Assembly (NCBI RefSeq): GCF_032062105.1
Contig: NW_026939565.1
Span: forward strand, 744,001-808,000
Reading direction: 5' to 3'
Source: Saccostrea cucullata
Taxonomy: Eukaryota
DNA length: 64,000 nt
In this document: positions 28,435 to 31,400 of the stretch, piece after piece
Position numbering within the stretch: the stretch's first letter is position 1
How the letters are laid out: each line of letters starts with the position of its first letter
The notes under the pieces: generated by a model
Seen by the model: only the letters and a program-made list of their open reading frames with translations
Told to the model about the DNA's origin: nothing
Databases searched by the model: none
Made by a program: the position numbers and the translations under genes

Positions 28435-31400
28435 CTACCTTTTCTGCTCTTTTTCTATGATTCCTCTAATTTCTTCTAAGGATGGCACCCTTCCTAACCA
28501 GACCAGAATACGAAGATATAGAATTCCCAGCCAAATTTTAAAGTTCTCAGCCCTGATGCGATAGTCATAATGTAGCACCTCTAGCCATGCCTTGATCTTC
28601 CCAGACCATGTTATATCCTGAACTCCAAACTTACGGGCACCTCTCATTGCACTGAAGCAAAATATAATACTCTTACAAAATTATACACAATAAATAAGAA
28701 AATTGGCCAAAGCAATATGATTTTTAATATTTAAACTGCTTAAATTGTAACCTTTATACACTTCACAACTCTGCATTCACATGTACTAATCCTATATGAT
28801 ATACAGCAAAACATGCTTATAACAAACATGCTTATGAGGAATTGACGCTTATAGCAGATTGTTTTTAATTCCCCTTGTCTTTAAATATATTGTGATCTTA
28901 ATGGATATAACAAAGTATGTTTATAACAAGGCGTAATTTTTGGTCCCTGTCCCTTCCTTACAAGCATGTTTTACTGTAATAAGAGATACAGTCAAACTTC
29001 GTTATCTCCGCTGGTTGGGCAGAGAAGAAACTTCAGATACCTTCATTTGAGATATCAGGGTTAAATACTTTAAGAATATGTTGTTGGGTATTCCATATCA
29101 CTTTGACATATCAATGGTATTCAAGATATCGGAGTTCGAGATACCAAAGTTCTACTGTACATGTAATTCAATCATTTGCTGTTCACGTTATTACCTTTTG
29201 GCCATAATCCCGTATCGGTCCACTACATGTCCATGTTCCTGACATATAGCTCTAATGGTGTTCATGTTCCTGTAAATATACATATCAACAATGGATTCTT
29301 ACAAATTCTAACTACATGTACATTATTTCTTAATAATTGCCATACTTTTTCAGATGATGATTTGATTCATTTATATATTTTTTTTCAATAAAAGATAAGT
29401 AAAAAAATTCTAAAAAGTGACATAAAGTGCAAATGCTTTTAGATAAAAAGTTCAAATTTTATTTTAAATACTGAATCAATAGATGATAAATTGCAAAATC
29501 AATAGCATTATTAGCCTTATGACAGCACACAATGTTGGTGATTTAGATCTAACTGATTAAATGAGGATTGTTACATATTTTATTCTTCATATTCAACTTT
29601 CCCTAGGTAGACTCATATTTTTGCAATTCTTTTCCGAGAAAGTGGCATTTTTGAAAGAGTTTGACTGGCATTCATTTTGACACATTGTTCATTGATCTTT
29701 AAATGTATATAATGAAATAAGCTTCTGATATATAAACTTTAGGCAAAGCAGGAAAAAAATCAAACAAACCTAATTATAAGAAGTATAGGTCTAGGCATGT
29801 CTTTCAAAACTTGCATGATTTTATCAAAATGTTTGTGTGCCATTATTCTCATATGATCAAAATCTTCTTTGGTCATGTGACTTGGTAAGTACGTAGCAGA
29901 CCTAGCAACTGGGCGCTGCACAAGTATCTCACAAAATATTTCATCATCTAAAATGTACAGTAATGCACATTATTATTCAATATCCTTTTAACCATTATTT
30001 AATACAGTGTTCTCTAAATAATGTTCCTGAATGATCTCTGCAAAAAATGTCCACTTTGATCTTCTGGAATCAAATATCTACAAAAAAACTTAATATAACC
30101 AAGCTTATTTCATTATATACCTTAAACCCTAATTAATTAAAACCATCACAGTCTCTTTTCACCAGCCTGCAAGTACATGCAAGGTAGCTAAATGCACTTA
30201 CTTATAGGTATCTGATACATGTAATTATATAAACACTCCCTATACTGATAGCATTAGTAAACCAAATATCACATCAACACAGTGCTTCAGAAGTAAAATG
30301 TAGGCCCTCATTTGGCAAAGAAAACACTGGAATATATATGGAAGTTCAACACTGCATGTGATTCACATTTACCTAAAAATAAAGAAAAGACCAGTGGGCA
30401 TTTGTCTCACTACAAGACGTATCCGGTCGTGTAGGGCGTGGTAGTCCTCCAGCCACTCCGCCTTGATCTCCGGAGGTAGGTCATAAAACTCCTTCTTTGT
30501 CAGGATTTTGTGTCGAAATAGTGGAGGTGCCTTCTCAAACACAACCCTGCCCTGCTTTGTTAGAAGGCAGAATACCTGGTAGTCTTACAAAAACAAATAA
30601 AAGTATTAGTATAGAGTACATATTACATTCCAGTGTACTGCAAACATATATATGTACTTTGTACTTGCTTTAAAACAGAGTCAATGGCTTTAGAAGTATA
30701 AACTTGTGGTAATTTTAATATAAGTGAGTGTGCCATTACATTGCATTACCATTACCAATTATTCAGACATGTTGTTGTGTCGAATCCGGATATTTCCGTG
30801 GAAAATCAACTAAATCTGGGCCAAGTTTGTACAATACATGTATAAGCTTACAGTGCACATAATTTACAAATATAGAAACATCTCTGCAGTTTGACCAAAC
30901 TTGTAGAATTTTAATTGACAAGTGCACATGTACAAGGGCTGTTCAAAAGTTTGTGGACAATATCAAAGTATAATATATTACTTTCAAAAGAATTCAGGAT
31001 TCACTTTGATAGATGGAAAAATACTTCAGTTGGTGTGACATTCCATGGGATTAAATGGTAAACATGTTACATATGTACTTAATTCTAAAATCAACGCTTT
31101 GTAACCACAAACTTTTCGAACATCTGTTGTATGTACCACATGCATAATAAAGTGTATTTCAACTAAATTATGCATTACCAATAATCCTAATACTTTACAA
31201 AATGAAGTTCTCTAATATGTTCAGTACAAAACAAACTTTTAAAGATATTTTCCTCATTTCAAAAATATATCAAAGAAGAAATGTCCCGACTAACAGTCTA
31301 ATTTAACAAACTACCAGCATTCATCAAAAACAAAATAATTGTGATTTTAATTTTAACTTAAAATTTTACCATCAACTCCCAGAGCCTTTGAGAACTTCTG

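Follow-up and report, generated by a model that had tools for sequence, protein, structure and literature searches.

A tandem exon pair in an oyster ADCK5-like gene exchanges a predicted helical block of the kinase C-lobe and may retune a lipid-binding pocket

Why does the ADCK5-like gene of an oyster carry two very different versions of a single exon, are both of them used, and what would the choice between them change in the kinase? We addressed this question in a 64-kb window of Saccostrea cucullata DNA (NW_026939565.1, positions 744,001 to 808,000, assembly GCF_032062105.1), the window being the whole stretch analyzed, in whose numbering coordinates are given. The features of the gene are collected in Table 1. 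The source annotation names the gene ADCK5-like, a profile of vertebrate ADCK5 gives short-type exons a median score of 71 bits, in support of this assignment, and the product matches Pfam ABC1 (PF03109) with 271 bits. The remaining ABC1 genes of this genome are found on different contigs. Most of intron 7 is occupied by a tandem array with a unit of ~167 nt (~31900-35000), and a repeat in intron 10 (29045-29164) attracts many unrelated RNA reads. Elsewhere in the window, on the plus strand, are an ORF of ~800 codons (44729-47131), which we take to be Toll-like receptor-like because its product combines leucine-rich repeats with a hydrophobic stretch and a tail resembling TIR, and exons with EF-hand motifs (20494-21182), presumably PDCD6/ALG-2-like.

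Table 1. Features of the ADCK5-like gene in window coordinates
Feature	Position	Strand	Remarks
ADCK5-like gene, coding span	28312..40095	-	12 coding exons, exon 9 in two versions
Exon 8 (171 nt)	31370..31540	-	contains the DHG motif (D381)
TGCATG upstream of 9a, absent from the preliminary description	31139..31144	-	sequence only
TACTAAT, branch-point-like	30605..30611	-	~27 nt upstream of the 9a acceptor
Exon 9a (211 nt), long derived form	30373..30583	-	residues 422-492, isoform X1
5' part of the 9a-9b intron	30114..30372	-	holds ACTAAT 30258-30253 and TGCATG 30181-30176; in RNA
Exon 9b (178 nt), short ancestral form	29770..29947	-	residues 422-481, isoform X2
Exon 10 (75 nt), acceptor common to 9a and 9b	29195..29269	-	junction reads, RefSeq mapping
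Exon 11 (213 nt)	28439..28651	-	RNA reads, RefSeq mapping

The exon pair is already annotated in RefSeq, by automatic annotation. Among the S. cucullata isoforms (XP_062591717.1 and its siblings), X1 contains exon 9a, X2 contains exon 9b and differs from X1 in exon 9 only, and X3 stops after 9a. The isoforms of 592 and 581 residues were aligned to the window exon by exon with zero mismatches. RefSeq therefore holds the same pair that is analyzed here, with ADCK5-like isoforms of this kind listed for further invertebrates as well; no account of its homology, age, or function was found.

The layout of the locus was examined for its reading frames. The two versions of exon 9 share their phases, as a preliminary description of this DNA had noted, with phase 1 at the start and phase 2 at the end of each, and the introns 8-9a, 9a-9b, and 9b-10 (786, 425, and 500 nt) are all bounded by GT-AG, in line with the good splice sites that it ascribed to 9a. 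The two lengths differ by 11 codons and are both 1 modulo 3, and each transcript with a single exon 9 stays open. The absence of stops from 9a, to which the description had also drawn attention, is unusual for its surroundings: a run of 69 open codons was seen in just 14 of 5,536 such frames of local introns. Inclusion of both exons creates the predicted AGA TGA at their junction, with the stop at codon 127 of 8+9a+9b, and direct joining of exon 8 to exon 10 also runs into a stop. Because these stops fall 462 nt (both exons included) and 280 nt (both skipped) before the end of exon 11, nonsense-mediated decay would be the expected fate of either transcript. The COQ8 locus is present twice in nearly identical form, probably through retention of both haplotypes in the assembly; for exon 9a of ADCK5, the S. 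cucullata genome gives a single match.

To see the splicing of the pair in RNA, we used 4 of the 24 runs listed. Three are raw-read runs that belong to a single study and the fourth is a contig run; all four come from a close relative whose exons differ by ~5% from the window; the runs carry no tissue or condition labels. The 9b-10 joint was found in all three raw-read runs (10, 1, and 3 reads, 14 in total) and in one contig, and the 9a-10 joint was likewise present in all three (3, 1, and 1 reads, 5 in total). Exon 9a, which could have proved to be never spliced, is thus spliced, with a share of 5/19 of the exon 10 joints (95% interval, 9 to 51%). No 9a-9b joint was among those listed for the four runs, a sample of 19 junction reads, with a floor of 3 reads for a joint to be shown, that a rare joint would escape. 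The read-level joints cover the side from 9a or 9b to exon 10; those from exon 8 are absent from the listing because its donor adjoins a repeat that was passed over. For the upstream joints 8-9a and 8-9b, the evidence comes from assembled contigs of relatives and from the RefSeq models, and exons 8, 9a, and 10 occur in one piece in Logan contigs of relatives (1.7 to 2.3 kb). Short-type exons make up 52 of the 53 Logan rows, an excess that is not taken as a measure of expression.

The differences between exon 9a and its counterpart in the close relative support purifying selection on 9a, because 8 of the 10 listed fall at third codon positions (P value, 0.003), and the constitutive exons behave alike. 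Exon 9b and its counterpart in the relative differ at 1 of 180 nt, whereas the figure for constitutive exons is 24 of 492 (P value, 0.001); despite this, conservation of the 9b protein among oysters is not unusual. A different view of these transcripts would be that 9a mainly turns the gene down, through products truncated after 9a or degraded because both exons are included. Gene models that end directly after the long exon in four oysters, Mercenaria, and Artemia fit such a role, as does one RNA contig that continues from 9a into the intron; models and contig could represent a retained intron or an alternative 3' end tied to 9a. However, the 9a-10 joints in 3/3 raw-read runs, the third-position bias of the differences, and a long exon that stays open and maintains conserved residues across phyla all speak against it, and we consider a mainly negative role very unlikely. 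The exon pair is almost certainly real and very probably exclusive.

The earlier description of 9a as a divergent duplicated exon was borne out by comparison of the two peptides. They form a homologous, adjacent pair with ~29% identity (20 of 68 positions), homology being concluded because pairwise BLASTP gave an E value of 0.014 and the family profiles of the long and short types cross-score with medians of 22 to 29 bits. Columns common to both types are F426, Q432, and the terminal P and R. Other positions separate them: E428 is present in 31/31 short forms, 0/30 protostome long forms, and 0/7 echinoderm forms, F462 in 29/31 short forms is matched by H473 in 23/30 protostome long forms, and I480 in 18/31 short forms by F491 in 23/30 long forms.

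The introns around the pair contain several motifs. The branch-like TACTAAT attributed to 9a is present just before its acceptor. The TGCATG and ACTAAT that had been reported between the exons lie where stated, but as evidence in themselves they fail, being within chance expectation for a 425-nt intron (P values of 0.14 and 0.10, respectively); a second TGCATG lies upstream of 9a. One RNA contig of the close relative spans 30114-30401; over 282 nt, it departs from the window by 8 differences and one gap of 6 nt. Since the third-position difference rate of the constitutive exons against the same relative is 12%, this piece of the 9a-9b intron, with its ACTAAT and TGCATG, looks conserved, judging from a single contig, and elements within it may regulate exon choice. 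Pairing of a docking site with selectors among the three introns was also considered and rejected: the best duplexes (-31.2, -24.0, and -29.7 kcal/mol) did not beat the best of 20 shuffles.

We next turned to the phylogenetic range of the two forms, which was taken from listed protein records and not from genome searches, so that absences are absences among those records. The search with the 9a peptide gave 4 of 16 candidates, all oyster ADCK5-like isoforms, with 100, 90, 87, and 83% identity. Among the best 120 of 1,025 matches, 38 were of the long type, 81 of the short type, and 1 contained both. Both types were found in oysters, scallops, Mya, Mytilus, Patella, Haliotis, Pomacea, Littorina, Biomphalaria, and Aplysia, the types of Mytilus and of Haliotis coming from two species each, and also in Owenia, Tubulanus, and Procambarus. 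Groups with a long/short pair include bivalves, gastropods, annelids, a nemertean, crayfish, and a cricket, and long forms were seen in Lingula, Watersipora, Homarus, Penaeus, Artemia, Caligus, Anabrus, Megalurothrips, and Gryllus. Exon 9a is therefore kept in relatives, at 83 to 100% in oyster clusters and as a long type across protostome phyla. The pair greatly predates oysters and occurs in molluscs, annelids, and arthropods. A further search of metagenomes for genomic copies of 9a gave 417 pattern matches, with 0 confirmed.

The position of the swap is the same wherever isoforms could be compared. In 12/12 isoform pairs, including that of the crayfish, the swapped block starts 42 to 43 residues after DHG; 9 of the 12 are identical outside this one block, and the other 3 involve different species or assemblies or a difference at the C terminus. 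Long precedes short, as in the oyster, in four gene models that run the exons together (Magallana, Dreissena, Paralvinella, and Gryllus). In the vertebrate and Drosophila records examined, the long form was not found and the short form stands alone. The Drosophila mauritiana isoform X1, 11 residues longer than X2, was rejected as a long form, its extra length being an unrelated insertion near residue 284. A search seeded with a starfish protein gave, among the best 120 of 320 matches, 8 echinoderms with one form of 70 to 74 residues each, 1 bryozoan, and 111 rows with 60 to 62 residues, of which the named ones were all vertebrates. Because the unicellular Chromosphaera also has the short length, the short form is taken as ancestral. 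Two ENA records hold arthropod-like, long-type single reading frames, which may be transcripts or separate genes in which the long form is fixed. In the rotifer Adineta ricciae, the ADCK5 block is still longer, at ~98 residues.

In order to date the duplication, 74 segments were chosen from fetched proteins, and topology tests were run on 41 of these 74 rows. Arthropod long forms scored higher on the lophotrochozoan long profile than on the short profile in 10/10 cases, and the reverse test agreed in 20/20; without the insert, the figures were 8/10 and 19/20. A tree without the insert unites all 30 protostome long forms with support of 94/75, although it is built on 41 columns and could be affected by mutual attraction among long forms that evolve fast. 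An alternative history would be convergence, with separate duplications in lophotrochozoans and arthropods; it concerns history only and would fit either a pocket or a surface-contact function. Convergent tandem exon duplication is common according to the part of PMC9741552 available to us, the arthropod long form is ~10 residues longer again, and a single clade of lophotrochozoan long and short forms was not rejected (P value, 0.070). The corresponding arthropod clade, however, was rejected (P value, 0.038), and the long forms of both groups have the same order, the same boundary, and H-D/E-R in common and have lost E428. We therefore regard convergence as unlikely, and the comparisons suggest that one duplication probably took place in the protostome ancestor, a conclusion in which we place fairly good confidence. 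Another protostome-wide exon duplication has been dated to >610 million years (PMC9741552, in the part available).

The echinoderm records were considered as proof of a bilaterian origin and were rejected as such. The echinoderm long form joins the long forms in the full tree (96/94), but a clade of echinoderms and vertebrates is no worse a fit than the unconstrained tree (P value, 0.594), and the mean echinoderm core score is highest against vertebrates. All eight echinoderm ADCK5 records combine a vertebrate-like start with a long-type core, and they could reflect a retained long exon, independent lengthening, or a chimera.

To place the swapped block in the protein, both isoforms were modeled from alignments of 30 and 29 sequences. 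The models reached a mean pLDDT of 75 and 78, with 79 to 92 across exon 9, and both have the UbiB fold. In the 9b model, the exon comprises helices 423-431, 448-460, and 462-471 and the start of helix 474-493; in the 9a model, helix 423-431 is followed by a longer loop, helices 451-456 and 459-482, and the start of helix 485-504. Collectively, the joints, the RefSeq isoforms X1 and X2, the purifying selection, and the two models uphold the initial proposal of a second isoform with a swapped helical block in the C-lobe. Motifs that we take to be those of UbiB proteins are KLGQ 146 (KxGQ), the alanine-rich loop AAAS 206, the catalytic K227, D359, N364, and the DxG D381, and the catalytic motifs all lie upstream of exon 9. 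The best structural match of both models is COQ8A (Z score 29.5, root mean square deviation 3.5, 360 residues aligned; and 25.0, 3.9, and 349), with RIO kinases well below (Z score 12 to 13).

This relationship allows a comparison with a proposed ligand pocket. A 2026 preprint, in the part available, describes an ATP-gated quinone-precursor pocket in the C-lobe of COQ8B, based on docking and mutants and without a ligand-bound structure; it involves V396, helix alpha14, R431, H443, and R444, and ADCK proteins go unmentioned in that text. Its numbering agrees with the chain numbering of 9TVK. The profile match between ADCK5 and COQ8B extends to L378, just before the start of exon 9, and the structural match continues to the end of the COQ8A chain. 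By this interval argument, exon 9 would correspond roughly to COQ8B residues 382-444, which include all of the pocket elements named above; COQ8B Y355 maps to ADCK5 exon 8. At the level of sequence, profile alignment of the ADCK5 C-lobe with the last exon of oyster COQ8 gave an hhalign E value of 0.47 and HMM scores within those of shuffles, and in three sequence searches of the PDB with ADCK5 queries, the matches ended at or before COQ8B residue 393. A gapless pairing made by eye sets P473-C490 against P436-C453 (18 residues, with P, R, M, I, and C in common) and would place R481 on R444.

Our preferred reading, in which we place moderate confidence, is that alternative splicing of the exon pair retunes a pocket that binds lipid. 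Exon choice would likely exchange the walls of a C-lobe pocket for a lipid (quinone), together with its gating helix, the ATP site would be unchanged between isoforms, and the two forms are predicted to differ in ligand preference or in the gating of a COQ8-like ADCK5 pocket. ADCK5 function is described as largely undefined in the available part of the review PMC12193262, where we found no ligand or activity for ADCK5. Yeast Cqd2, a putative orthologue of ADCK1/5, controls the distribution of CoQ (10.1101/2020.12.09.418202, available part). With two versions of a C-lobe block, fixed differences between them, and a probably protostome-wide history, the block is a putative specificity-setting part of the kinase. 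The isoform pair offers a direct comparison, one enzyme with one block changed, for the search for a ligand and probes the COQ8 pocket model in the ADCK1/5 branch.

The main rival of the pocket reading is that the swap alters a protein- or membrane-contact surface or stability, the 10 to 20 extra, often basic residues forming a surface loop and a longer helix. In the 9a model, the extra length does sit partly in the loop that follows helix 423-431 and partly in helix 459-482, the median net charge of the block is +5.5 in lophotrochozoan long forms versus +1 in short forms, and COQ8A owes its binding of cardiolipin to basic patches (10.1101/149823, available part). Yet arthropod long forms have a median charge of +2, and the differences fixed between the types also occupy columns of the helical core; this explanation is possible, but we would not expect it to be the right one.

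By analogy with coq-2, exon choice in ADCK5 might instead follow the switch between ubiquinone and rhodoquinone, with one form for each quinone, or for amino precursors, in step with the coq-2 exons. In molluscs, annelids, and helminths, a mutually exclusive exon pair of coq-2 decides between the two quinones (PMC7434440, in the part available), the control of CoQ distribution by Cqd2 would suit a role of this kind, and the long form is lacking from the vertebrate and Drosophila records. The same part of PMC7434440, however, describes rhodoquinone only in nematodes, flatworms, molluscs, and annelids, and long forms occur in crustaceans and insects outside these known makers (Procambarus, Homarus, Penaeus, Artemia, Caligus, Anabrus, Gryllus, and Megalurothrips); for crustaceans, the available part of PMC6856725 notes anaerobic tolerance and does not name rhodoquinone. 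The single cestode cluster seen is also of the short type, a weak absence. We consider such a coupling to rhodoquinone improbable. A broader version would be that most protostomes splice a second ADCK5 whose pocket is rebuilt for another lipid (rhodoquinone or amino precursors), with an origin that is possibly bilaterian. This is a long shot; if true, the second ADCK5 would complement the coq-2 switch on the transport side in anaerobic life, the natural isoforms would offer a ready-made comparison in the search for the ligand of this kinase, and a bilaterian origin would imply retention of the short exon in vertebrates and of the long exon in echinoderms.

In the literature on splicing of ADCK5 and aarF genes, searched outside subscription journals and supplementary catalogues, none of the titles or abstracts listed dealt with such a pair in invertebrates. 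The pair is invisible from human, mouse, and Drosophila, which is probably why it is seemingly undescribed. COQ8A and COQ8B (4PED, 7UDP, and 9TVK) and yeast Cqd2/Mcp2 have the same UbiB fold and motifs as ADCK5, but COQ8 and ADCK5 are only ~20% identical and lack a match at the sequence level in the exon 9 interval; in a non-exhaustive reading of oyster COQ8 loci, no exon swap was seen. The closest parallels lie among tandem duplicated exons. The Ca-alpha1T event is protostome-wide and was lost before chordates (PMC9741552, here and below in the part available), and substitutions of this type resemble that of ADCK5 in that homologous adjacent exons are present, one is used, the event is old, and vertebrates apparently lack it. 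Most of those substitutions are conservative, however, whereas the ADCK5 exons differ by 11 codons and are 29% identical; the available main text makes no mention of ADCK. Exons 6a and 6e of coq-2 (PMC7434440, available part) are of equal length, confined to rhodoquinone makers, and of shown function, whereas the ADCK5 long exon also occurs in arthropods and its function is putative. Like the ADCK5 pair, which is very probably exclusive, they are mutually exclusive, belong to a quinone-pathway gene of molluscs and annelids, and include a derived exon that is absent from mammals. The ADCK5 exon pair is a real, old, and apparently undescribed member of this known class of tandem duplicated exons.
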